Shown here piece after piece: positions 10,825 through 26,542 of a DNA stretch of 64,000 nucleotides. The DNA comes from an uncultured delta proteobacterium (GTDB taxonomy: Bacteria > Myxococcota > Myxococcia > SLRQ01). The notes under the pieces were generated by a model. It saw only the letters and a program-made list of their open reading frames with translations, was not told where the DNA came from and did not search any database. Made by a program: the position numbers and the translations under genes. The stretch lies in assembly GCA_963727485.1 (NCBI GenBank), contig CAVSGM010000001.1:640001-704000 (forward strand), given 5' to 3'. Each line of letters begins with the position of its first letter. Position 1 is the first letter of the stretch.

Positions 10825-12318
10825 ATGCCGACGCCGACCGACCTCCGCCGCGCCGACCCCCGCTTCCCCGCCTTCTTCCGCCACCGGGCCCTGGCCGGCG
10901 GCCACCTCATCACCGGCCTCGCCGGCCGGTGGGCCGTCCTCGACGACGCCGAGTGGCAGGCCTTCGTCGAGGGCCGGGTGGACCCGGCCTCGGAGACCTG
11001 GGAGACCCTGCGGCGCGGGGGCTTCATCCGGGCCGAGGTCGACGTCGACGACCTCGCGGCGCGGCTGCGCCGGAAGAAGGCGTTCCTCGGCAGCGGCCCG
11101 AACCTCCACATCGTGGTCACCACCCTGCGGTGCAACGAGACCTGCGCCTACTGCCACGCCAGCCGCGCCGACCTCGGGACCGAGGGGGTGGACCTCACCG
11201 CCGAGATCGCCGAGCAGGTGGTCGACCGGATCCTGGAGACCACCTCCCCGGACGTGACCATCGAGTTCCAGGGGGGCGAGCCCCTGGTCAACTGGCCGGT
11301 GGTGCGCCACCTGGTCGACTACGCCCTGGAGAAGAACCGGGTGGCGGGCAAGTCGCTGGAGTTCACCCTGGTCTCCAACCTCGCCGCCATGGACGAGGAG
11401 AAGCTCGCCTTCCTCCTCGAGCACAAGGTGCAGGTGTGCACCTCGGTGGACGGGCCGGCGCCGCTCCACAACAAGCAGCGGGTCCTGGCCGGGGGCGACG
11501 CCCACGCCACCGCCCTCCGGTGGATCAAGCGCCTCAACGAGGCCTACCGGGACGAGGGCCTCGATCACGAGGTCTACCACGTGGAGGCCCTGCCCACGGT
11601 CACCCGGGCGGCGCTGGCCGATCCCGAGGGCCTCATCGACACCTACCTCGACCTCGGGTGCAAGGCGATCTACCTCCGGCGCCTCGATCCCTTCGGCTTC
11701 GCGGCGAAGACCCGGGCGAAGCTTGGCTACTCGGTCGACGAGTTCCTCGAGTTCTATCGCCGCGCCCTCGACCACATCATCGAGCTCAACCTGAAGGGCA
11801 CCCGGATCCTGGAGCGCACGGCGGCGATCTTCCTCACCAAGATCCTCACCCCCGACGACCCCAACTTCCTCGACATCCGCTCGCCCTGTGGCGCCGGCAT
11901 CGGCCAGCTCGCCTACAACTACGACGGCTCGGTGTTCACCTGCGACGAGGGGCGGATGCTGCACGAGATGGGCGACGACATGTTCGTCCTCGGCCACGTG
12001 GGCACCGACCGCTACCGCGACTTCGTGGGCCACGACACGGTCAAGAGCATGATCCTGGCCTCGGACCTCGACGCCTCCCCGGACTGTGCCGACTGCGCCT
12101 ACAACCCCTACTGCGGGATCTGCCCGGTCTACAACTACGCCACCCAGGGCAGCCTCCACGGCCAGATGCGGCGCAGCGACTGGTGCGCCGGGCACATGGG
12201 GATCCAGGACCATCTCTTCGGCAAGCTCGCCGAGGGCGACCCGGCGGTCCGCGAGGTGTTCCGGCGCTGGGTCGAGGTGCGCCCCCGGGACCACTACCTG
12301 CACGAGGCGGAGAGCTGA
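10825..12318 (+). CDS. hxsB: His-Xaa-Ser system radical SAM/SPASM maturase, HxsB-like
   Basis: LHIVVTTLRCNETCAYCHAS (CxxxCxxC), IEFQGGEPL, DIRSPCGAGIGQLAYNYDGSVFTCDEGRML, C-terminal CADCAYNPYCGIC. Confidence 0.85.
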   Translation: MPTPTDLRRADPRFPAFFRHRALAGGHLITGLAGRWAVLDDAEWQAFVEGRVDPASETWETLRRGGFIRAEVDVDDLAARLRRKKAFLGSGPNLHIVVTTLRCNETCAYCHASRADLGTEGVDLTAEIAEQVVDRILETTSPDVTIEFQGGEPLVNWPVVRHLVDYALEKNRVAGKSLEFTLVSNLAAMDEEKLAFLLEHKVQVCTSVDGPAPLHNKQRVLAGGDAHATALRWIKRLNEAYRDEGLDHEVYHVEALPTVTRAALADPEGLIDTYLDLGCKAIYLRRLDPFGFAAKTRAKLGYSVDEFLEFYRRALDHIIELNLKGTRILERTAAIFLTKILTPDDPNFLDIRSPCGAGIGQLAYNYDGSVFTCDEGRMLHEMGDDMFVLGHVGTDRYRDFVGHDTVKSMILASDLDASPDCADCAYNPYCGICPVYNYATQGSLHGQMRRSDWCAGHMGIQDHLFGKLAEGDPAVREVFRRWVEVRPRDHYLHEAES

Positions 12319-12320
12319 TC

Positions 12321-13229
12321 ATGGATCGCGTGGACCTGAAGATCGGCTTCGCCTGCAACAACCGCTGCGCCTTCTGCGTGCAGGGCGACAAACGGGAGCG
12401 CGAGCCACCCCGGCCCATGGAGCAGATCCGCGCCGACCTCGAGGCCGGCCGGCAGCGCGGGGCCAGCGGCCTGGTGGTCACCGGCGGCGAGCCCACCGTC
12501 CACACCAACGTCCTCGAGGTCATCCGCCTCGCCAGGCAGCTGGGCTACACCTCGATCCAGGTCCAGACCAACGGCCGGCGCTTCCACTACGATCTCTTCG
12601 CCCGGGCGGCGGTGGAGGCCGGCGCCACCGAGTTCTCGCCCTCGCTCCATGGCTCCACCGAGCAGATCCACGACGGGCTCACCCTCTCGCCGGGGAGCTT
12701 CCAGCAGACGGTCAAGGGCATCCGGAACCTGGTGAAGATGGACCAGGTGGTCATCACCAACTCGGTGATCACCAGCACCAACTACACCGATCTCCCGGCC
12801 TTGGCCGAGCTGCTGGTGGACCTGGGGGTCAGCCAGTTCCAGCTGGCCTTCGTCCACATCCTCGGGTCGGCGGAACAGAACGCCAGCTGGCTGGTGCCCC
12901 GCAAGTGGGAGGTCATGCCCTTCGTCTACCGGGCCCTGGACATCGGCGAGGCCGCCGGCGTCCGATGCATGACCGAGGCCATCCCCTACTGCCTGATGGA
13001 GGGGTACGAGGACTTCGTCGCCGAGGACCTCATCCCCGACACCCTCATCTTCGACGCCGACCACACCATCGACGACTACGCCGCCTACCGCCGGGACGAG
13101 GGGAAGGTGAAGGGCCCCGCCTGCGCCGACTGCCGGTTCACGGATCGGTGCGAGGGGCCCTGGCGCGAGTACACCGACCTCTTTGGCTGGGACGAGTTCA
13201 AGCCCATGGGCGCGCTCAAGGAGGCGTGA
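12321..13229 (+). CDS. Radical SAM protein, HxsC-like
   Basis: CNNRCAFC, VTGGEPT, QTNGR, IPYC, C-terminal CADCRFTDRCEG; starts 2 bp after hxsB. Confidence 0.8.
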   Translation: MDRVDLKIGFACNNRCAFCVQGDKREREPPRPMEQIRADLEAGRQRGASGLVVTGGEPTVHTNVLEVIRLARQLGYTSIQVQTNGRRFHYDLFARAAVEAGATEFSPSLHGSTEQIHDGLTLSPGSFQQTVKGIRNLVKMDQVVITNSVITSTNYTDLPALAELLVDLGVSQFQLAFVHILGSAEQNASWLVPRKWEVMPFVYRALDIGEAAGVRCMTEAIPYCLMEGYEDFVAEDLIPDTLIFDADHTIDDYAAYRRDEGKVKGPACADCRFTDRCEGPWREYTDLFGWDEFKPMGALKEA

Positions 13230-13244: not shown

Positions 13245-14306
13245 TCAGGCGGCGAGGCGCGGGCGGAGCCACTCGGCGATGGCCGGGTAGAGCTTCCGGG
13301 CGGCGCGGCTGCCCACCACCGCGCCCACGTGGCCGCCGGGCACGGTGATCGACTCGGTGTCCTCGCTCCCCGAGGCCTCGAGGAGGGCGGTGGCCGCGGG
13401 AACCGGGCAGATGACGTCCCGGTCGGCGGTGATGGAGAGGATGGGGCAGGTGACGTCCTTCAGGTCCACCCGCCGGCCCCGGGCGTGGTGGGTGCCAGCG
13501 ACCAGGGCGTTTCGCTGGTAGAGGTCCCCGATGTAGGTGCGGTAGGCCTCGGCGGGGAAGGGGATGTTGTCCCGGGCCCAGGTCTCCAGGGCGAGGAAGC
13601 GCTCGAGGCGCTCGGGATGGCCCACCAGGTCCGGGAGGCCCATCAGCTTGGCCAGGCCCGCGGTGGGGCGCAGGCCGGTGAACCCGCTGTCCATCTGCTG
13701 GGGGCTCACGTTGCCGGCGTCGGCGATGGCCCCGGCGTCGAACCACCGCCGGTCGACCATGCGGCCCAGGCACCCGGCGTGGGTGAAGTCGAAGGGGCCG
13801 GCGAGGTTCACGAAGGCCGCGGCGTCCCCGGGCTCGAGGGCGAGGTGGATGCCGGTGAGGGTGGCGCCCATGCAGTAGCCGAGGAGGCCCAGGCGCGGGG
13901 CGCCGGTGAGGCGCTTGGTGCGCCGCACCATCCGGGCGAGGCGCGCCAGCACCTGGTCCCAGTCGAGGTAGCGGTCCTCGTCCTCGGGGATGCCCCAGTC
14001 GAGGAGGAAGACGTCGTAGCCGGCCCGGGCGAGGTGGCCGGCGAGGGTGCCCCCCGGGCGCAGGTCGAGGACGTACCAGCGGTTGATGAGCGAGGGGACG
14101 AGGAGAAGCGGCAGCCCCGTGGGCGCCGGGGCCCCCTCGGGCCGCCGGAAGCGGTAGAGCCGGGCGGTGCCCTCCCGGTGGAGGGTGTCACGGGGCGTGG
14201 GGGCGAGGTCGGGGCGGGGGAGGGCGTCCGGGCCCAGGGCGAGATCGAGGCCGGCTTCCAGGCCGGCCTCGATCACGCGGCCCGCCCACCGGTACAGGTC
14301 GTACAT
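13245..14306 (-). CDS. phaC: Class III-type PHA synthase PhaC (copy 1)
   Basis: [21 protein letters not shown] lipase box, ADRDVIC Asp, PGGHVG His; PHA gene context. Confidence 0.8.
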   Translation of the reverse strand: MYDLYRWAGRVIEAGLEAGLDLALGPDALPRPDLAPTPRDTLHREGTARLYRFRRPEGAPAPTGLPLLLVPSLINRWYVLDLRPGGTLAGHLARAGYDVFLLDWGIPEDEDRYLDWDQVLARLARMVRRTKRLTGAPRLGLLGYCMGATLTGIHLALEPGDAAAFVNLAGPFDFTHAGCLGRMVDRRWFDAGAIADAGNVSPQQMDSGFTGLRPTAGLAKLMGLPDLVGHPERLERFLALETWARDNIPFPAEAYRTYIGDLYQRNALVAGTHHARGRRVDLKDVTCPILSITADRDVICPVPAATALLEASGSEDTESITVPGGHVGAVVGSRAARKLYPAIAEWLRPRLAA

Positions 14307-14330
14307 GCGGTGGCTCCGGGGTCGTGGGGA

Positions 14331-14633
14331 CTAGTCGCGGGTGTTGCCGGCGGCGCGGCGGGTGGCCTCGAGGGCCATCTTCCGCCACTCGTCGCCGAGG
14401 CGACCGGCGTACTCCATCGAGGCCTTCATCACCGAGGCGGCCTCGTCCACCAGGGCGCGGCCCTGCTCCAGGCCCTTGGTCTGGAGGGTGCCGAGCTCGG
14501 TGTGGAGGGACTCGAGGCGCTCGACGTAGGCCCCGGTCATCTTGTGCCAGGCGTCGAGGCCGGCGCGGGGATCGAAGGCGAAGGCGTCGAAGGGGCTCTG
14601 CTGCGACTGCGAAGGGGTGGTCTTGGGCATCAT
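14331..14633 (-). CDS. Small helical phasin-like PHA granule protein
   Basis: 100-aa amphipathic helical protein between phaR and phaC, with a PhaR-type box upstream. Confidence 0.55.
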   Translation of the reverse strand: MMPKTTPSQSQQSPFDAFAFDPRAGLDAWHKMTGAYVERLESLHTELGTLQTKGLEQGRALVDEAASVMKASMEYAGRLGDEWRKMALEATRRAAGNTRD

Positions 14634-14718
14634 CGGCTCCAGTTGGTGCGTCTGGGGGCCGATTTCACGGCCCCGGGGGTTTGCGAACGCGCCAAGAGGT
14701 AAGCGTCCTCGCCGGGGT

Positions 14719-14750
14719 CGTCAAGGGATTTTTTGTGCACCGCACAATAA
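14719..14750 (-). promoter_or_regulatory. PhaR-type operator TTGTGC-ACC-GCACAA next to a TTGACG -35 element
   Basis: Perfect 6-3-6 palindrome at 14733-14747; minus-strand TTGACG at 14724-14719. Confidence 0.7.
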
Positions 14751-14757
14751 TCCGGGC

Positions 14758-15492
14758 TCACCGCCCGGCGCCGCGCCCCTTGTTGGCCGCGCGCTTTCCC
14801 TTGGGGGACGCGGCCCGGGACGCCTTCTTCCGGGCGCGGGGCGGGCGCCCTGGTTCGGGCGCGTCGTCGTCCCCGCCGAGGCGGGCCTTGAGGGCGTCGA
14901 GCTCGGCGCGGAGCTCGGCCATCTGGTCGCGCTGGTCGCGCTGGTCGCGCGACCGTGCCGCCGCCTCCGCCTCGGGGGACGACGCCGGCGGGGGGGCCGC
15001 GGCCGGCGGCGCCGGGTCAGGCGGCGCCCCGTAGACCGGGCCCCCGTACCCCGGCGCCGTGAAGCCCCCCCCGCCGCGCTGCAACAGCATCCGCGCCAGG
15101 GAGCCGGCGAAGTCGAAGGGCATGGTGGCGAAGGGGTTGTAGTTGGAGAGGGTCTGGGCGCCCTGGCGGGCCTGGAGGTAGACGTCGAGGGCCCCGGAGA
15201 CCCAGCGCCCGGTGAACTCCGCCAGGGCCTCGTCGCCGAGCCGGATGAGCCGGGTGAGCAGGGGGACCGGGAGCATCCGCCCGGCGCCCCGGCCCTCGAG
15301 GATGATCTGGGCCAGGGTGGGCTGGGTGAGGTCGGTGCCGGTCTTGGCGTCGACCACCTCGACGTCGGCGCCGGCGCGGATCCGCGCCTCGAGCTCGTCG
15401 AGGGTGACGTAGCGGCTCTCCTCGGTGTCGTAGAGCCGGCGGTTTCCGTACTTCTTGACCAGGACCGGTCGGGCGGCGCGGCGGCGGGCCAT
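14758..15492 (-). CDS. phaR: PHA synthesis regulator PhaR
   Basis: VKKYGNRRLYDTEESRYVTL...VVDAKTGTDLTQPTLAQII signature. Confidence 0.92.
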   Translation of the reverse strand: MARRRAARPVLVKKYGNRRLYDTEESRYVTLDELEARIRAGADVEVVDAKTGTDLTQPTLAQIILEGRGAGRMLPVPLLTRLIRLGDEALAEFTGRWVSGALDVYLQARQGAQTLSNYNPFATMPFDFAGSLARMLLQRGGGGFTAPGYGGPVYGAPPDPAPPAAAPPPASSPEAEAAARSRDQRDQRDQMAELRAELDALKARLGGDDDAPEPGRPPRARKKASRAASPKGKRAANKGRGAGR

Positions 15493-15618: not shown

Positions 15619-15671
15619 TTGTTGCGGCGCAACAAAGAGCCCTTGACACCTGGGTCACGGACGCCTATCAA
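15619..15671 (+). promoter_or_regulatory. Perfect PhaR-type palindrome plus sigma70-like promoter of the rightward PHA operon
   Basis: TTGTTGCG-G-CGCAACAA at 15619-15635; TTGACA (15643)-N17-TATCAA (15666). Confidence 0.75.
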
Positions 15672-15732
15672 CCGCTACCCGAAGGGTCGCCGTGGATACC
15701 GCGGCGCAGCAAACGGCCCCGAGGAGGTGTCC

Positions 15733-16774
15733 ATGGACCCCACGCCCGCAGCCAACCGATCCCGTGACACCGTGGTGGCCGCCGGCTATGGGGGCACCAT
15801 GCCGCCCCTCCCCAGAGGCCGGGTCGTCGCCGCCCGGGCCGCCCTGACCCTCTCCCGGGTCCTCGCCGCCGTCGCCGCGGCCCTCCTCGCCGGCGGCTGC
15901 GGCGCCGGTGGGAGCGCCCCCTGCCAGGTGGACACCGACTGCCCCAGCGGCGTCTGCGGCGTCTCCGGGGTGTGCCAGCCTCCCTCCGCCACCGACGGAG
16001 GCGTGGGGGACGGCGGGGCGGTGGGCCCCCGATGGGGACGGCGGCACCGGCGGGGGCTCGGGCACCGACGGGGGCGCCGCCACCTGCGTCCCCAACCACG
16101 ACGGCACCGTCTCCCGGGACGAGGTCACCCTCGCCGCGGGCCTCTCGGCCACCTTCCGCATCGGCACCCAGGCCACCGTGGACACCGCCGGCACCTACGA
16201 CGCCGACGGCACCCGGCACTGGCGCCTCGACGGGGACCTCGCCGGGGACCACGACGTGACCGTCGCCACCCTCTCGCCGGCGGGCACCTGGTGGGCCGGC
16301 GACTTCAAGGACGCCACCTACGCCGGCCGCCTCCGGGACGGCCAGGATCTCTTCGGGGTGTTCCAGGCGACCCCCACCGCCCTGATGCTCCTGGGCGTGG
16401 TCTCCCCGAACGGCGGGGCCACCCGCACCGAGCTCACCTACCACCCGGCGGTGCAGGTCCTCCACTTCCCCCTCACCCAGGGGGCGGCCTGGCGGACCGA
16501 CAGCCAGGTCACCGGGGTCACGGGCGGCGTCGCCAGCTACTACACCGAGAGCTGGGTCGACCGGGTCGACGACTCGGGCCGCCTCGACACCCCCTACGGC
16601 ACCTTCGACGTCCTCCGGGTCCGGGTGGAGACCACCGACGACCAGGTCACCCCCACCCGGAGCTTCCTCTTCGTCTCCGAGTGCTTCGGCAACGTGGCCT
16701 CGGTCTTCTCCAACCCCGGCGAGACCGCCGCCGAGTTCACCCGCGCCGCCGAGGTCTCCCGCCTCGCCCCCTGA
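15733..16774 (+). CDS. Lipoprotein A of unknown function, frameshift near 16028
   Basis: GAGGAGG RBS; LLAGG-C lipobox; Cys-rich motif; CVPNHDGTVSRDEV; C-terminal SECFGNVA. Confidence 0.7.
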
Positions 16775-16778
16775 AGCC

Positions 16779-17702
16779 ATGCGCCGCGTCCTCGCCCTCG
16801 CCGCCCTGATGGCTACCCTCGCCGGCTGCCCCGCCTTCCACCGGGGCGTGCTCCCCGGCGCGCCGCCCCACGCCGACTACCTCGAGGTCGACGGCGTCCG
16901 GGTGCGCTACCTCGACGTGGGCCAGGGCCAGCCGGTGGTCCTCATCCACGGCTTCGCCTCCAGCCTCGACGCCTGGGCCCGGGTGATCCCGGTCCTGGTC
17001 CGGGACCACCACCGGGTGCTGGCCCTGGACCTCAAGGGCTTCGGGTGGAGCGGCCGGCCGCAGGGGAGCTACAGCCCCGAGGCCGAGGCGCGCCTGGTCC
17101 TGCGCCTCATGGACGCCCGGGGCATCGGCCGCGCCGACGTGGTCGCCCACTCCTGGGGCGGCTCGGTGGCCCTGGCCCTCGCCCTGAAGGCGCCCAAGCG
17201 CGTGCGCCGCCTCGCCCTCTACGACGCCTGGGTCTACGACGACGAGATCCCCAGCTTCTTCCGCTGGGCCCGGGCCAGGCCGCTCGGCGAGATCCTCTTC
17301 AGCCTCTTCTACAAGCAGCGCCCCGAGGACCGCCTGGCGCTGGCCTACTACGACCCCACCAAGATCCCCCAGTCCCTGGTGGACGCGGTGCGCCGGGCCC
17401 TCGACCGGCCCGGGACCGTCGCCGCCGCCCTCGCCGCGGTGCGCGATCTCGACTTCGTCCGCCTCGCCCGGCGCTACCACCGGGTGCGCCAGCCGACCCT
17501 GCTCCTCTGGGGCCGGGAGGACGTGGTGAGCCCGGTGGCCACCGGCGAGCGCCTCTCCGCGGACCTCCCCGACGCCCGCCTGGTGGTCTTCCCTCGCTGC
17601 GGCCACATGCCCATGGTCGAGGCCGCCGACCGGTCGACCCGGGCCCTGGTGCGCTTCCTCGACGCGCCCGCCGCCGCGCCCGCCGCCGGGGTCTCGCCGT
17701 GA
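16779..17702 (+). CDS. Lipoprotein alpha/beta hydrolase (esterase/lipase/depolymerase-like)
   Basis: LAG-C lipobox, LIHGFAS oxyanion region, AHSWGG nucleophile, WGRED, CGHMP. Confidence 0.88.
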   Translation: MRRVLALAALMATLAGCPAFHRGVLPGAPPHADYLEVDGVRVRYLDVGQGQPVVLIHGFASSLDAWARVIPVLVRDHHRVLALDLKGFGWSGRPQGSYSPEAEARLVLRLMDARGIGRADVVAHSWGGSVALALALKAPKRVRRLALYDAWVYDDEIPSFFRWARARPLGEILFSLFYKQRPEDRLALAYYDPTKIPQSLVDAVRRALDRPGTVAAALAAVRDLDFVRLARRYHRVRQPTLLLWGREDVVSPVATGERLSADLPDARLVVFPRCGHMPMVEAADRSTRALVRFLDAPAAAPAAGVSP

Positions 17703-19335
17703 GCGCCGCCCGCCGTCCCGCGCGCCGCCTCGCCGTCGCGCTCCTCGCCGCGCTCCTCGCCGCGGCCCTCGGCCTCGCCCCCGTCGCCGCCCGCGCCGGC
17801 GACGACGGGTTCACCGGGCTGGGCGCCGAGCTCCGGGGACACGCCTTCGCCGCCCCCAACGCCCCGGCCAAGGTCGGCCTCCACGGCTACCTCCGCCTCC
17901 GGGGCGGCCTCCTCGACAACCTCGATCTCGACCGGGGCCTCGACGCCAGCGGCCGGCCCCTCTTCCCGGTGCCCCTCACCGGCGGCCAGACCCTCTCCTT
18001 CGCCGACAGCCGCCTGCGCACCGACCTCTCGATCCTCGCCCCCGGGGGCACGGTCGCCGTCCACGCCCGCATCGACGTCCTCGACGACGTGGGCCTGGGG
18101 ACCACCCCCGACGCGCCCAGCGTCCGCGCCGCCACCCCCGCCGCGAGCGCCGGCCAGCGCCCCCTGAAGGCCCTGGCGATCAAGCGCGCCTGGGGCGAGG
18201 TGCTCACCCCCTTCGGCCTCCTGGCCGCCGGGCGCATGGGCAACGACTGGGGCCTGGGCCTCCTCGCCAACGGCGGCGACTGCGAGAGCTGCGACGGCGG
18301 CGACGCCACCGATCGCGTCGCCTTCGTCACCCCCCTCGTCGGCCACCTCTTCGCCCTGGCCTACGACTTCGACGCGGTGGGCGCCACCACCACGGACAAG
18401 CCGGGCCTCACGGTGGTCGATCTCGCCCCCACCGCCGACGTCCACACCGTGACCTTCGCGGTGATGAAGTGGAAGACCCGCCTCGCCCGGGATCGCCGCC
18501 GCCGCGCCGGCCGCGCCACCTTCGAGTACGGCGCCTGGCTCTCGCACCGCTGGCAGCACAACGACGTCCCCGCCAGCTGGATGCCCACCGCCACCCCGGT
18601 CGCGGTCACCCCCAGCGGAGTCATGGCCCGGGGCTACCAGGCCACCGCCCTCGACGGCTGGGCCCGCCTCACCGCCCCGCGCCTCGAGATCCAGGCCGAG
18701 GCGGCGGTGCTCCTGGCCTCGGTGGCCCAGCCCTCCGTCATCCCCGGGGTCCTCCTCCACACCCCCGTGACCTCCACCCAGGCGGGCGCGGCGGTGGTGA
18801 GCGCCTGGCACCCGCTCCCGGGCCTGGTGGTGGGCCTCGACGCCGGCTACGCCAGCGGCGACCCGGCCCCGGGCTTCGGCGCCTTCCCCACGCCCGGCAG
18901 CCCCGCCCCCAAGGCCGGCGCCCTCGACGGACCCCAGGCCAGCCCCCCGGGCGACACCACCGTGGACAACTTCCGCTTCCACCCGGACTTCCACGTGGAC
19001 CGGATCCTCTTCCGGGAGATCATCGGCACGGTCACCGACGCCATCTACGTGCGGCCCCACTTCACCTGGCGGCTGGTGGATCTGGGCAACGGTCACCTGG
19101 AGGTGGGCGCCGCGGTCATCGCCTCCCGGGCGATCTACGCCAGCTCCACCCCCGGGGGCGCGGTGCCGCTGGGCGTCGAGATCGACCCGACGCTCCGCTA
19201 CGCCACCGACGACGGCTTCGCCCTCACCCTGGCCCACGCGGTGCTCTTCCCCCTCGCGGGCCTCGACAACCCCGCCGCGGGCCTCAAGGCCCAGCCGGCG
19301 CAGGTGCTCCGCCTGCGGATCTCTACCGGTTCTAA
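17699..19335 (+). CDS. TIGR04551-family putative outer-membrane beta-barrel, frameshift near 19322
   Basis: Signal peptide ending AARA; IKRAWGEVLTPFGLLAAGRMGNDWGLGLLANGGDC; NFRFHPDFHVDRILFREIIGTVTDAIY; corrected C-terminus ends YRF. Confidence 0.8.
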
Positions 19336-19338
19336 TCC

Positions 19339-20147
19339 ATGCGCCTCGCCCTCGCCAGCGCCCTCGTCCTCGCCCTCGCCGCCTGCGGGGGCCAGAACCG
19401 CACGCCCTTCGGTGCGGCGGCCCCGACCGGCACCGCCGCCTGCCTCCCCAACCTCGACGGCACCATCACCGCCGCCGAGCTCCGGCCGGTGATCGGCGCC
19501 ACCCTCACCTACGACGTCTCCACCGACGTCCCGGTGGACCTCGCCGGGCGCCAGGACGGGGGCCGGACCCTCTGGGACTGGTCGGCGACCGCCGGCGGCA
19601 CGAAGGTGACCGAGGGCCCGGTGGCCCTCGCCGGCCAGTGGTACGCCGGCGCCTTCCCGACCGGCGCCTTCGTGCTGCCCGCCGGCGGCGGCCTGGTGGG
19701 CGTCTACCGCGCCGACGACACCGCGGTGTGGCTCTTGGGCACCGCCTCGGCGGACCCGAGCCCCCCGAGGGCCAGACGCGCCTCGTCTACGACGCCCCGG
19801 TGGCGGTCTACCGCTTCCCGATCACCGCCGGCGCCACCTGGACCTCCACCGCCGGGGTCACGGGCACCTTCGACGGGCTGCCCTACCGGGGCCAGGTCAC
19901 CTACGCCGCCCGGGTGCGGGACGCCGGGGAGCTGCGCCTCCCGGACGTCACCTTCACCGAGGTCCTGCCGGTGGACTTCACCGTCACCAACGCGCCCACC
20001 CCGGGGACCCCGGTGGTCCAGAGGCAGGTGAGCTTCCTCTTCGAGTGCTTCGGCGAGGTCGCCCGCGCGACCAGCCACCCCGGGGAGCAGAGCCCCGACT
20101 TCTCCAACGCGGCGAGCCTTCGCCGCCTGACCCTGGAGGCCAGATGA
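19339..20147 (+). CDS. Lipoprotein B, paralog of lipoprotein A, frameshift near 19765
   Basis: LAA-C lipobox; [31 protein letters not shown]...[11 protein letters not shown]. Confidence 0.72.
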
Positions 20148-20432
20148 TCGGATGGGACCAGTTCAAGCAGGGCTTCGACGCCTGGGAGCGCATCACCGCC
20201 GACTACCTGGAGCGCCTGCTCCAGAGCGACTCGGTGCTCCGGCCGGCGGGGAGCCTGCTCACCTTCTCCATGAAGACCAAGGCGGCCACCGACAAGGCCG
20301 CCGCCGCCTGGTGGGGGGCCATGGGCCTGTCGACCCGGCGGGACCAGGAGCGCGCCCTCCACGCCCTCAACCAGCTCGAGTCCAAGAATCCTCGACCTCG
20401 AGGAGCGCCTCGAGGATCTCGGGGAGGCTTGA
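20144..20432 (+). CDS. Small PhaE-like PHA synthase accessory subunit, frameshift near 20387
   Basis: [12 protein letters not shown]...[22 protein letters not shown](I)[10 protein letters not shown] resembles the PhaE C-terminal coiled coil. Confidence 0.6.
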
Positions 20433-20437
20433 GGGCC

Positions 20438-22198
20438 ATGGACGTCACCGAGCTCCTCGAGGTGAAGGCCGCGCCCCAGGCGGTCTTCGACGCCCTCCCG
20501 GCGCGCCGGGACCGGGTGCGCTTCATGGTGCCCCGCTCCGGCGGCGGCCACGACCCGGTGACCCTCGGCGCCTTCGCCGAGGCCATCCGCGGCGTCGCCC
20601 TCTGGCTCGCCGCCGGCCCCCTGAAGCCCGGGGAGCGCGCGGCGGTCTTCGCCCCCAACCGGGTGGAGTGGGGCACCGCGGCGCTCGCGATCCAGGCCGC
20701 CTCCGGGGTGATGGTGCCCATCTATCCCGGGAGCACCGCCGACCAGGCCGCCTACGTGGTTCGCCACGCCGACGCCCGGGTGGTCTTCGTGGACACCCCG
20801 GTGCTCCTGGCGCGGATCCTCGAGGCCTGGAGCGCCTACGCCTCGGTGCGCCACCTCGTCCTCCTCGACGACGGCCTCGACGTGGCCAGGCTCCACGCGG
20901 AGCTCGCCCACGGCGACGGCCCCCACGGCGACGGAGACCTCCCGAGCCTCGCCGAGGTCGAGGCCAAGGTGGTGCGACTCTCGGCGGTCCTGGGCCACGG
21001 CGCCGCCCGGCACCAGGCCGACCCCGAGGCCCTCGATCAGCTCCTCGCCGCCGTCGACGTCGATCGCCCGGGGCTGATGCTCTACACCAGCGGCACCTCC
21101 GGGAGCCCCAAGGGCGTGCCCCTGACCCACCGCAACGTGGGGGTCAACGGCGCCGACTGGCTCCGGTGCTTCGCGCCGATCCTCGAGGACGACATGGTCG
21201 ACCTCTTGTGGCTGCCCATGAGCCACATCTTCGGCTTCGGCGAGCTGTGCCTGGGCAACACGCTGGGCTTCACCACCTACCTCTCGGACCCGGCGAGCGT
21301 GCTCGCCCGGATGCCCGAGGTGCGCCCCCAGGTGTTCATGAGCGTGCCCGCCTACTGGGAGAAGCTCGCCCTCGCCGCCGCCGAGGACGACGACCCCGCC
21401 GCGCGGCTCCAGGATCTCACCGGCGGCCGGCTCACGGTGTGCCTCTCCGGAGGCGCCGGTCTCAAGACCGAGGTGAAGCAGCGTTTCCAGGACGCGGGGA
21501 TGCTCGTGGTCGAGGGCTACGGCCTCACCGAGTGCTCGCCCACCCTCACCCTGAACCGCCCCGACGACTTCCGCTTCGACGCGGTGGGCAAGCCGCTGGC
21601 CTCGGTGGAGCTCAAGCTCGCCGACGACGGCGAGATCCTCGCCCGGGGCGCGAGCGTGTTCGCCGGCTACCACAAGGATCCCGGCGCCACCGCCGAGTGC
21701 TTCACCGACACCGGGTGGTTCAAGACCGGGGACGTGGGCCGGTTCACCGAGGACGGGTTCCTCCAGATCATCGATCGGAAGAAGGACATCCTGGTCACCG
21801 CCGGCGGCAAGAACGTGCCCCCGGCGAACCTCGAGGTGCGCTTCCGCGACGACCCCTTCATCGAGCACCTGCTGGTCTACGGCGACGGCCACAAGTACCT
21901 GGTGGCGGCGGTGTGGCCGCGGGCCGAGGCGGTGGAGAGGTGGCTGGTCGGGCACGCGGAGGGCGAGGCGCGGGATCACGCGATCCGGGCGCTGCTCGCC
22001 GAGCGCATCGAGACGGTCAACGCCGGCCTCGCCCGCCACGAGACCATCAAGGACTTCGTGGTGATCGACGCGCCGCTGACCGTGGAGGCGGGCCTGCTCA
22101 CCGCGTCCCTCAAGGTGCGGCGCAAGGCGGTGTACCAGCGCTACCGGGACCGCCTCGAGGCCCTCTACCAGGCCCCGCGCCAGGCGGCGGGCGGATGA
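20438..22198 (+). CDS. Long-chain fatty acid--CoA ligase (AMP-dependent)
   Basis: [41 protein letters not shown]. Confidence 0.92.
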
Positions 22199-23238
22199 GC
22201 CCGCCGGTCGATCCCAAGGTGCTCGGGCGCCTGAAGAATCTCCTGCGGCTCCCGGTGAAGCGGCCCCAGGTGGGCGTGACCCCGGCCCAGGTGGTCCACG
22301 CCGAGAACAAGTGGCGCCTCCTGCGCTACGCCCCCCGGGCCGCGGGGCTCGCCTTCGACACCCCGATCCTCCTGGTGCCCTCGCTCATCAACCGGCACTA
22401 CGTCCTGGATCTGATGCCGGGCAAGAGCCTCGCCGAGTGGCTGGTGGCCCGGGGCCACGAGGTCTACTGCATCGACTGGGGCCGGCCCGGGCCCGAGGAC
22501 CGGTACCTCGACTTCGACACCATCACCGACGGGTACCTGGGCCGGGCGGTGCGCCACGCGGCGAAGGCGGCGCCCTCGGGGAAGGTGCACCTGCTCGGCT
22601 ACTGCCTCGGGGGGACGCTCACGGCGATCCACGCCGCCGCCCGTCCCGAGCGCGTGGCCTCGCTCACGGTCCTGGCGGCGCCGGTGGCCTTTGGCGACGA
22701 GGGGCTCCTGGCGCGGTGGGTGCGCAGCGAGACCTTCGACGTCGACGCCCTGGTGGACGGCGCCGGGAACGTCCCCTGGCAGCTGATGCAGTCGGCCTTC
22801 CACCTCCTGCGCCCGACCCTCGGCCTCGCCAAGCTCATCCACCTCCTCGATCGGGCCTGGGACGACGTCTTCCTCGACGGCTTCCTCGCCCTGGAGACCT
22901 GGGGGAACGACAACGTCTCCTTCCCCGGCGAGGCCTACCGCCGGTACATCGGCGAGCTCTACCGGGACGACGCCCTGATGCAGGGGACCTTCCGCCTCTC
23001 GGGGCGGCCGGCGCGCCTCGAGGCCATCGCCTGCCCGGTGCACGTGGTGACCTTCGCCCACGACAACATCGTCCCCGAAGCGAGCGCCGTCCCCCTGGCG
23101 ACGGCGGTGGCGTCGGCCGATGTGGTCCATCGGTCGCTGCCGGGGGGCCACGTGGGGGCGGTGGTGTCGCGGAAGGCCGCGCAGGGCCTGTGGCCGGCCC
23201 TGGCCGAGTGGTGGGAGGGGCAGTCCGGCCCCCGGTGA
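22195..23238 (+). CDS. phaC: Class III-type PHA synthase PhaC (copy 2)
   Basis: [50 protein letters not shown]. Confidence 0.85.

Positions 23239-23425: not shown

Positions 23426-26542
<3,117 letters not shown>

Follow-up and report, generated by a model that had tools for sequence, protein, structure and literature searches.

What an outer-membrane barrel, two lipoproteins and a lipid-anchored hydrolase contribute to a putative operon for polyhydroxyalkanoate (PHA) synthesis is the question raised by a stretch of 64,000 nt (the window in the following) from an uncultured delta proteobacterium (assembly GCA_963727485.1, contig CAVSGM010000001.1, positions 640,001-704,000 of the forward strand; genome completeness 93%). 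PHA metabolism is regarded as cytoplasmic. In the window, seven genes on the same strand encode lipoprotein A (LA), an alpha/beta hydrolase, a predicted barrel of family TIGR04551, lipoprotein B (LB), a PhaE-like protein, an acyl-coenzyme A (CoA) ligase and a PhaC-like synthase. Gene calls confirmed the order and the overlapping or 3-5 bp junctions that had been reported for these genes: LA and the hydrolase gene are 4 bp apart, the hydrolase and barrel genes overlap by 4 bp, 3 bp separate the barrel gene from LB, and an ATGA overlap leads from LB to the PhaE-like gene, which is followed after 5 bp by the ligase gene and, via a second ATGA overlap, by the PhaC-like gene. Among relatives, the median junctions in the same order are -4, -4, 3, 18, 31 and -4 bp. 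The original prediction delimited the locus to 15619-23238, which is correct for the seven genes but leaves out a divergent half at 13245-15492, where phaR, a phasin-like gene and a second phaC-like gene complete the cluster.

Judged by its gene content and its conservation across the phylum, the group of LA, hydrolase, barrel and LB is a real envelope unit (hereafter the module). It is shared by many uncultured myxobacteria and forms part of a PHA cluster that is class III-like but atypical. Our preferred reading, to which we assign a probability slightly above one half, is that the module would take up and cleave small acyl or hydroxyacyl esters for storage as polyester, whereby we infer both the direction of transport and the substrate.

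Conservation of the module and its control region

The search for the barrel covered 401 genomes of the phylum and revealed a TIGR04551 relative in 395 of them, with a separate high-scoring group of 53 (≥340 bits). All 53 loci, selected by barrel score alone, were retrieved together with seven intermediate or core loci; including those found via the lipoprotein or by contig scan, the number of module loci rose to 68, of which 47 have wide flanks. One unpublished genome (G196) is part of the 401-genome tallies for barrel, PhaR, PhaC and lipoprotein, and all other statements are independent of it. In this survey of gene neighbourhoods, which had been proposed as a check, lipoprotein(s) and hydrolase accompany the barrel in 53 of 53 top-scoring loci, arranged as LA-hydrolase-barrel-LB within the limits of the contigs. 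The barrel has one or more pha genes nearby in 52 of them, the exception having less than 2 kb of upstream sequence. None of the seven core TIGR04551 copies used for comparison, only three of which have wide flanks, is accompanied by lipoprotein or hydrolase genes or by pha genes.

Among the 47 loci with wide flanks, a PhaC-like protein is encoded in 45, PhaR in 43, a CoA ligase in 42, a PhaE-like protein in 36 and a short-chain dehydrogenase/reductase (SDR) of the 3-ketoacyl-reductase type in 31; a symporter or a carrier of the major facilitator superfamily (MFS) was detected in 10, using two query proteins only. The LB family is present in 70 of the 401 genomes, and 66 of these contain a PhaC-like match compared to 115 of the 331 genomes without the family; the genomes are kin and not independent, and no probability is attached to this co-occurrence. 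Two of the four lipoprotein-family genomes without a PhaC-like match carry a very divergent synthase. The link to the module is also kept across several gene orders with differing ligase and synthase types: a small gene and a more distant PhaC/PhaZ-like hydrolase are found 5' of LA in family f12, families f1, f25 and f28 have a different ligase type 5' of LA and the synthase 3' of LB, and a very divergent Cys-Asp-His synthase stands directly 3' of LB in family f29. This conserved linkage supports the proposal that the envelope module feeds the CoA ligase and the PhaC-like synthases, and chance adjacency of envelope and pha genes was rejected on the same grounds. In f29 (L087:6773-8218 and L119:7534-8958), a PhaC-like protein of 480 aa (GYCGQG, Asp, His; TIGR01836 21 bits) replaces PhaE and PhaC, and it is possibly a PhaE-PhaC fusion.

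The control region between the two halves of the cluster points to PhaR. The palindrome 5' of the operon is indeed perfect and of PhaR type, with arms of 8 bp, and its TGC-N3-GCA core is found in 31 of the 32 loci in which phaR is directly divergent from LA (shuffle mean 3.5). In 27 of these 32 loci the box precedes TTGAC by 17-22 nt (shuffle mean 0.013), and all 36 loci compared for the phasin-like gene have a TGC-N3-GCA box 5' of it as well (shuffle mean 1.8). In the window, the palindrome (15619-15635) ends 7 bp before TTGACA (15643), and a weak -10 element, TATCAA, lies 17 nt beyond TTGACA. The postulated sigma70-like promoter is thus backed by a TTGACA that is kept together with the box, but its -10 element is weak and a consensus promoter scanner called 0 promoters in the window. 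The terminator scan yielded two terminator-like matches, which lie on the minus strand and are no more than expected by chance. Excerpts of a study on S. meliloti PhaR describe a motif with the core YGCRNYGCR and its binding in electrophoretic mobility shift assays (PMC12542648), and the palindrome of the window fits this core. With a PF07879 domain and an operator of this type at the promoter both present, the module is likely to be under PhaR-type control, the binding itself being predicted. The operator core is kept 5' of the module even where pha genes are missing, as in L117 and L120, the only two such loci with good coverage. The window's genome contains a second PhaR-type copy, and module genomes mostly have two. 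A PhaR-type DNA-binding domain was detected in 370 of the 401 genomes, some of which have no PhaC-like match (example of the domain, G000:C1:485499-485795).

Predicted functions of the encoded proteins

The barrel passes the TIGR04551 cut-off (336 versus 300 bits), so that the family label stands, but it is a separate paralog and not the near-universal gene of that name. The core copy of the same genome lies elsewhere (553 bits), beside argH, lysA, dapA and dapB. Core TIGR04551, which is near-universal and single-copy in Myxococcota, shares the barrel core with the module protein and has a long N-terminal extension that the latter lacks. In a quick tree of 35 module barrels and seven core copies, the module barrels form one side of a branch with a support of 100 in the SH-like approximate likelihood ratio test. 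From these sequence comparisons, the barrel is a second, module-specific TIGR04551 paralog and not an orthologue of the core copy. In the same tree, the window barrel groups with L001 and L003 (support 97), apart from the module barrels of its own family; horizontal gain or hidden paralogy may account for this placement. At one locus (L085:9010-11463), barrel and LB form one reading frame, which is either a real fusion or a sequencing artefact.

The structure model of the barrel has 18 long strands (predicted local distance difference test, pLDDT, 90.9). Its best Foldseek match is AlgE (E 1e-14), and a wide structure search returned MOMP (Z 24.5), AlgE (Z 23.2) and Occ channels (Z 20.5-22.1), among them OpdQ with Z 22.1 and a root mean square deviation (rmsd) of 3.9 over 327 residues. 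As the scores of MOMP, AlgE and Occ channels are close together, the fold gives no direction of transport. The Pfam scan, which covered a selection of genes from the module loci, gave no family for the barrel, and the barrel profile matched no sequence in the PDB; neither search placed the barrel in the OprD family. The conserved residues on the polar faces of the strands, assigned by alternation, include 14 basic ones, mostly in strands 1-6 and 18, and 13 acidic ones, mostly in strands 11-17. As modelled, the pore suits small charged solutes and not intact lipid or a long hydrophobic polymer. Import of intact lipid through the barrel was rejected given this polar, charged pore and the presence of two FadL-family genes at other places in the genome. 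Together with one gene of the WS/DGAT type (G000:C2:169002-169688; C11:645632-646873; C2:1807993-1808838), these FadL-family genes indicate routes for neutral-lipid storage and fatty-acid uptake outside the cluster.

The [AG]HS[WY]G nucleophile motif is present in 60 of 60 homologs of the hydrolase, and a simple pattern detects a lipobox in 44 of them. Hydrolase-barrel fusions with long linkers are recurrent (L001, P0102, P0112 and a 59-member Atlas cluster). Since the N-termini of outer-membrane barrels normally face the periplasm, these fusions make a position of the hydrolase on the periplasmic side of the channel more likely. The +7 Ala signal for export to the matrix, as described in the consulted part of PMC3222651, occurs in 2 of 44 hydrolases and does not decide the side of the membrane. 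The hydrolase is weakly similar to intracellular PHA depolymerases (NF050089 74.5 bits, cut-off 300; 8ynv E 1.6e-19), and its other best PHA-related score was 51 bits for TIGR02240 (cut-off 251). The original prediction had it attack external polyester such as prey granules, and this found no support: the hydrolase exceeds no PHA-depolymerase cut-off among the matches listed (NF050058, NF050059, TIGR01840 and PF10503 were tested), the Pfam scan detected no additional (polymer-)binding domain on it, and the window's genome, at 93% completeness, contains no PF10503 match and no NF050058 match over the cut-off.

The paralogous lipoproteins LA and LB share two conserved Cys motifs and a loop that resembles an EF-hand. 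LA consists of a Cys-rich N-terminal repeat, a Gly-rich linker and the core domain common to LB; the repeat region gave a weak match to TIGR04201 (E 0.04), and neither lipoprotein has a Pfam match. The model of an intact LB homolog (pLDDT 93) has its best match in 4fvs, a lipoprotein (Z 9.9; rmsd 3.8, 169 residues aligned), and also matches YmcC (2in5; Z 7.7). These comparisons with flattened beta-sheets of the DUF3108-like or YmcC-like type (4fvs, 3fzx, 2in5; Foldseek E 0.008) are weak matches and have no Pfam support; an Atlas lead for the LB family scored 0.80, with PF21347 on 17% of the members. The profile search for the lipoprotein family retrieved 1,592 proteins, among which no informative fusion was found; one join to an MFS protein may be a gene-calling artefact. 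In P0242, P0243, P0249 and P0125, two or three copies of the LA/LB domain follow one another in tandem, and every copy has its own EF-hand-like loop.

The two PhaC-like proteins are 47% identical and are the only strong PhaC-like matches in the genome. Both have the lipase box with Cys and the Asp and His motifs of a class III synthase; GYC[ML]G is present in 39 of 39 and 37 of 37 best-hit rows and GGHVG in 37 and 34, respectively, in sets that can overlap. The PhaE-like protein matches only positions 232-305 of the 311 in PF09712 (20.8 bits, cut-off 25.7), which is the C-terminal part, and a full-length PhaE subunit is not present in the window cluster. A length of 95-108 aa is usual among relatives, and the homolog in L039 exceeds the PF09712 cut-off (28.2 versus 25.7). 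Neighbours with the size and position of the phasin-like protein show weak matches to PF09602 or PF09361 (E 0.009 and 0.003). For the ligase, the best NCBIfam matches are FadD11 and PRK06187, both below their cut-offs. That the window lacks phaA and phaB had been taken as a sign of salvage. This argument is weak because most relatives keep a ketoacyl reductase gene (31 of 47 loci), and the window's genome has two MaoC-domain matches over the cut-off as well as FabG-like SDRs outside the cluster.

Four genes are frameshifted in the assembly, namely LA, the end of the barrel gene, LB and the PhaE-like gene. These frameshifts are probably assembly errors, since the LB gene is uninterrupted in 57 of 60 related loci and a close relative, as judged from single contigs of low depth, lacks two of them (19321 and 20388). 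The fragmentary DNA contigs of this relative span barrel-LB and LB-PhaE-like-ligase. Pseudogene decay was rejected for the same reasons. Upstream of the cluster (10825-13229, plus strand), the window encodes a His-Xaa-Ser radical S-adenosylmethionine (SAM) pair consisting of HxsB (530 bits, cut-off 370) and an HxsC-like protein below its cut-off; L002 is the one module locus in which an HxsB homolog was found. Downstream, a predicted lipoprotein of 1038 aa (23426-26542, plus strand) contains a domain resembling a carbohydrate-binding module as well as Big_7 and phosphoesterase domains; it is probably not a member of the cluster, as it has no homolog in the module loci.

Table 1 Features of the cluster in the window and loci of the analogous trio. 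Positions are those of the window unless a locus is named.
Feature	Position	Strand	Basis
PhaC-like synthase 1, 353 aa (GYCMG, Asp, GGHVG)	13245..14306	-	TIGR01836 233 bits (cut-off 365); position conserved among related loci
Phasin-like small protein, 100 aa	14331..14633	-	Size and position; no family match for the window copy
PhaR-type palindrome 5' of the phasin-like gene	14733..14747		Sequence
PhaR-type regulator	14758..15492	-	PF07879 88.5 bits (cut-off 25); TIGR01848 89.7, below 109
PhaR-type palindrome, 8-bp perfect arms around one base, TGC-N3-GCA core	15619..15635		Sequence
Predicted promoter TTGACA-17 nt-TATCAA	15643..15671	+	Arrangement conserved; scanner gave no call
Lipoprotein A (LA)	15733..16774, alternative start 15799	+	One frameshift near 16020
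Predicted lipid-anchored alpha/beta hydrolase (lipobox LAGC; AHSWG, Asp, CGHMP)	16779..17702	+	PF00561 122 bits
TIGR04551 paralog, predicted 18-stranded outer-membrane barrel	17699..19335	+	336 bits; last codons frameshifted
Lipoprotein B (LB), lipobox LAAC, LA paralog	19339..20147	+	One frameshift near 19765
Short PhaE-like protein, ~96 aa	20144..20432	+	PF09712 positions 232-305, E 2.7e-4; frameshift at 20388
Acyl-CoA ligase, long-chain FadD type	20438..22198	+	PF00501 207 bits, PF23562 42 bits
PhaC-like synthase 2, 347 aa (GYCLG, Asp, GGHVG)	22195..23238	+	TIGR01836 263 bits (cut-off 365)
Analogous trio loci	L105:12537-17769; L103:1085-4564; L104:1-5023; L110:9387-12788; L129-L138

Direction of transport and competing explanations

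In the preferred reading, PhaR would repress the promoter until polymer titrates it away, a behaviour carried over from other bacteria to the motif seen here. Esters or carboxylates, such as PHA oligomers set free in the surroundings, would then cross the outer membrane via the predicted 18-stranded polar channel, with LA and LB possibly assisting in binding or assembly. At the channel, probably on its periplasmic side, the lipid-anchored esterase with its conserved catalytic motifs would free monomers that could reach the cytoplasm by a symporter or MFS carrier, as encoded in a minority of loci, or by diffusion. There the ligase would form acyl-CoA, which may be passed to the synthases directly as 3-hydroxyacyl-CoA or by way of beta-oxidation with a reductase or MaoC hydratase. 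Finally, the two synthases with their Cys-Asp-His motifs, the minimal PhaE and the phasin would build granules.

On comparative grounds, import by this route is more likely than export, so that the import function first assigned to barrel and lipoproteins is retained without the attack on prey granules. The conserved basic and acidic residues of the pore and the closeness of the fold scores to those of Occ carboxylate channels are in line with this. Three sets of loci favour uptake. Firstly, in L117 and L120 the module is kept beside an MFS carrier (L117) or beside a ligase, a second hydrolase and an acylase of the penicillin-amidase family (L120). Secondly, in a single case (L127:222-2856, G021:C509), a stand-alone LA paralog overlaps by 4 bp with the gene for a secreted polyhydroxybutyrate (PHB) depolymerase (NF050058 294 bits, cut-off 150), and two PhaR-type boxes lie upstream. 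By eye, the C-terminus of this depolymerase (Cys-hydrophobic-Arg) resembles MYXO-CTERM.

Thirdly, a second envelope trio exists, which is composed of a lipoprotein of ~200 aa, an outer-membrane-type protein of ~545 aa ending in Phe and a lipoprotein hydrolase. The 545-aa protein is predicted to be a barrel on account of its signal peptide, C-terminal Phe and source names; homology to TIGR04551 was not found (hhalign probability 4.7%, E 0.009), and the trio lipoprotein matches the module lipoprotein over the signal peptide only. A synthase orthologue (E <1e-100) without the module is present in 14 genomes, near-closed ones included, and a new observation is that these genomes mostly carry the analogous trio: its barrel was detected in 12 of the 14, compared to 11 of 69 module genomes, and is missing from the window's genome. 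Nine of the synthase-only loci were retrieved; the trio lies beside the cluster in four, and PHB-depolymerase homologs were found in four, of which the three tested exceed the cut-off. In six of 10 further trio loci, a depolymerase homolog lies within the stretch, and several of the ten have symporters, ligases or PhaR-type boxes. The neighbours of the trio thus include NF050058 depolymerases, sodium symporters, ligases and PhaR-type boxes. Two of the trio loci contain unusual proteins that may be read-through artefacts, namely an apparent fusion of sodium symporter, PHB depolymerase and immunoglobulin (Ig) domains of 1172 aa (L133:4180-7698) and a depolymerase of 859 aa at the place of the trio lipoprotein gene (L132:6409-8988).

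Several findings weigh against uptake of PHA-derived esters. An extracellular PHB depolymerase is missing from the window's genome and from all 68 module loci, and the hydrolase itself reaches no recognised depolymerase cut-off. A secreted PHB depolymerase is present in 48 of 69 module genomes but is not specific to them, with 38 of 64 PhaC-positive and 18 of 55 PhaC-negative genomes without the module having one in comparison sets hand-picked from the 331. The 14 genomes mentioned above identify the module as an accessory of a synthase cluster that, by its sequence, exists without it, and module and trio are not mutually exclusive, as both occur in 11 genomes. Both PhaC-like proteins and the tested relatives remain below the class III cut-off (TIGR01836, 365 bits), the ligase is of the long-chain type and not a known 3-hydroxybutyrate ligase, and inner-membrane carriers were detected in few of the loci. 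Other copies of the trio are part of TetR-FabH-ligase or TetR-FabH-MFS operons; since the TetR-FabH-ligase contexts have no PhaR box, the substrate may, by analogy, be fatty-acyl esters rather than PHA oligomers. Lastly, the best Foldseek match of the barrel is an exporter, and LB resembles YmcC/GfcB, whose partner is a barrel for capsule export.

These last two points lead to export, in which short or modified polyester would be trimmed by the periplasmic esterase and secreted via the AlgE-like barrel and GfcB-like lipoproteins as a coat or overflow product. Besides the Foldseek E-value of AlgE, PF13372 on Atlas neighbours of the barrel and the Z-score of LB against YmcC are in line with this, as are the binding of GfcB to the export barrel GfcD that is described in an excerpt of PMC9603273 and the presence of two synthases, which could split storage and export. 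However, MOMP, AlgE and the Occ import channels lie within ~2.5 Z units, no conserved inner-membrane exporter was found in the module loci, and no OPX protein, Wzx/Wzy or glycosyltransferase was detected among their annotated genes (Pfam, selection of genes). The retention of the module without synthase genes in L117 and L120, the phasin-like genes and PhaR, which point to intracellular granules, and the company of secreted depolymerases and symporters that the trio keeps further argue against export, and we regard it as rather unlikely.

The lack of a secreted depolymerase in the genome, the weak similarity of the hydrolase to intracellular PHA depolymerases and the long-chain type of the ligase would also be compatible with internal recycling. 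In that case, envelope lipids of the same cell or PHA oligomers in its periplasm would be the substrates of the esterase, and the barrel would recapture or vent the products during carbon storage or mobilisation. As this leaves the dedicated outer-membrane channel with its two lipoproteins unexplained, and likewise the depolymerase linkage in L127 and the trio, we consider it unlikely.

It is quite improbable that the barrel serves as a display platform, comparable to autotransporter and Slam systems, which translocates or holds esterase and lipoproteins on the surface, with hydrolysis being external and monomers entering by another way. The recurrent fusions with long linkers, the Cys-rich repeat and long Gly-rich linker of LA and the tandem repeats of its domain would suit such a platform, but the fold is AlgE/Occ-like and has no N-terminal periplasmic chaperone domain. 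Although the consulted part of PMC3222651 documents lipoprotein export in myxobacteria, few hydrolases carry the +7 Ala signal, and a polymer-binding domain was not found on the hydrolase. Highly improbable, finally, is a passenger with an unrelated envelope role that shares only PhaR control and a mobile cluster: the module is dispensable in the 14 synthase genomes, its patchy distribution suggests horizontal spread and PhaR regulons elsewhere include unrelated envelope genes (PMC12542648, in excerpts), but the link outlasts rearrangement and replacement of ligase or synthase in at least 10 families, with translational coupling, and the trio takes the module's place.

Relation to known systems and biological meaning

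Compared to known systems, the locus works like a channel-plus-ligase utilisation locus but fails membership of the Occ, AlgE/OPX (outer membrane polysaccharide export), canonical class III and extracellular depolymerase systems. OprD/Occ-type channels sit with catabolic CoA-ligase operons. The module barrel shares with these carboxylate channels the 18 strands and a polar pore with conserved arginines, but identity is only 8-12%, the protein is larger, it has dedicated lipoproteins and a tethered or fused esterase, and the product is likely stored. With FadL-FadD, it has in common that entry across the outer membrane is coupled to activation with CoA, for which a FadD-type ligase is used; FadL, a barrel of 14 strands with a hydrophobic route, is not among the 50 matches listed for the barrel, and the pore here is charged. 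AlgE and the myxobacterial export barrels (MXAN_7418, MXAN_3226 and MXAN_1916) as well as GfcB-GfcC-GfcD are similar in the 18-stranded fold and in the YmcC/GfcB-like LB, whereas the annotated module loci have no OPX/tetratricopeptide repeat (TPR) scaffold, polymerase, flippase or glycosyltransferase and the partners are esterase, CoA ligase and PhaC.

The similarity to the class III PhaE/PhaC system of the Allochromatium vinosum type comprises a PhaC of ~350 aa with Cys-Asp-His, a PhaE-like partner, a PhaR-type regulator with its operator and a phasin-like gene. The cluster differs in having two PhaC-like genes below the cut-off, a PhaE cut to ~96 aa, a CoA ligase in place of phaAB and an envelope module inside the operon. 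Scavenging by extracellular PHB depolymerases (NF050058/TIGR01840) is approached in that such enzymes adjoin the LA paralog of L127 and the analogous trio, but the window hydrolase is outside these families and the window's genome is without such an enzyme. Our literature searches found no paper on TIGR04551, on myxobacteria, PHB depolymerase and prey, or on a dedicated outer-membrane route for PHA breakdown products; likewise, no paper found describes an envelope module in a pha cluster, in a search of publications exclusive of supplementary genome and proteome tables.

A wider hypothesis, which we put forward tentatively and hold to be doubtful, is that Myxococcota possess at least two interchangeable, TonB-independent polyester utilisation loci under PhaR control. 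These would harvest PHA of prey or dead cells, which would be re-polymerised by a synthase of two PhaC and a mini-PhaE without monomers from acetyl-CoA. The trio relatives are named from the cultured genera Corallococcus, Archangium, Stigmatella, Hyalangium and Minicystis, and the idea is therefore open to genetics via the analogous trio.

The probably PhaR-controlled, conserved unit of channel, esterase, ligase and synthase is a candidate for the outer-membrane step in the handling of PHA products. It also places one branch of TIGR04551, along with an unnamed lipoprotein family, in a functional context for the first time. The parts for uptake and repolymerisation may be of interest to bioplastic recycling. 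For myxobacteria of sediment and soil, the locus suggests a way in which the stored carbon of other cells might be recycled.

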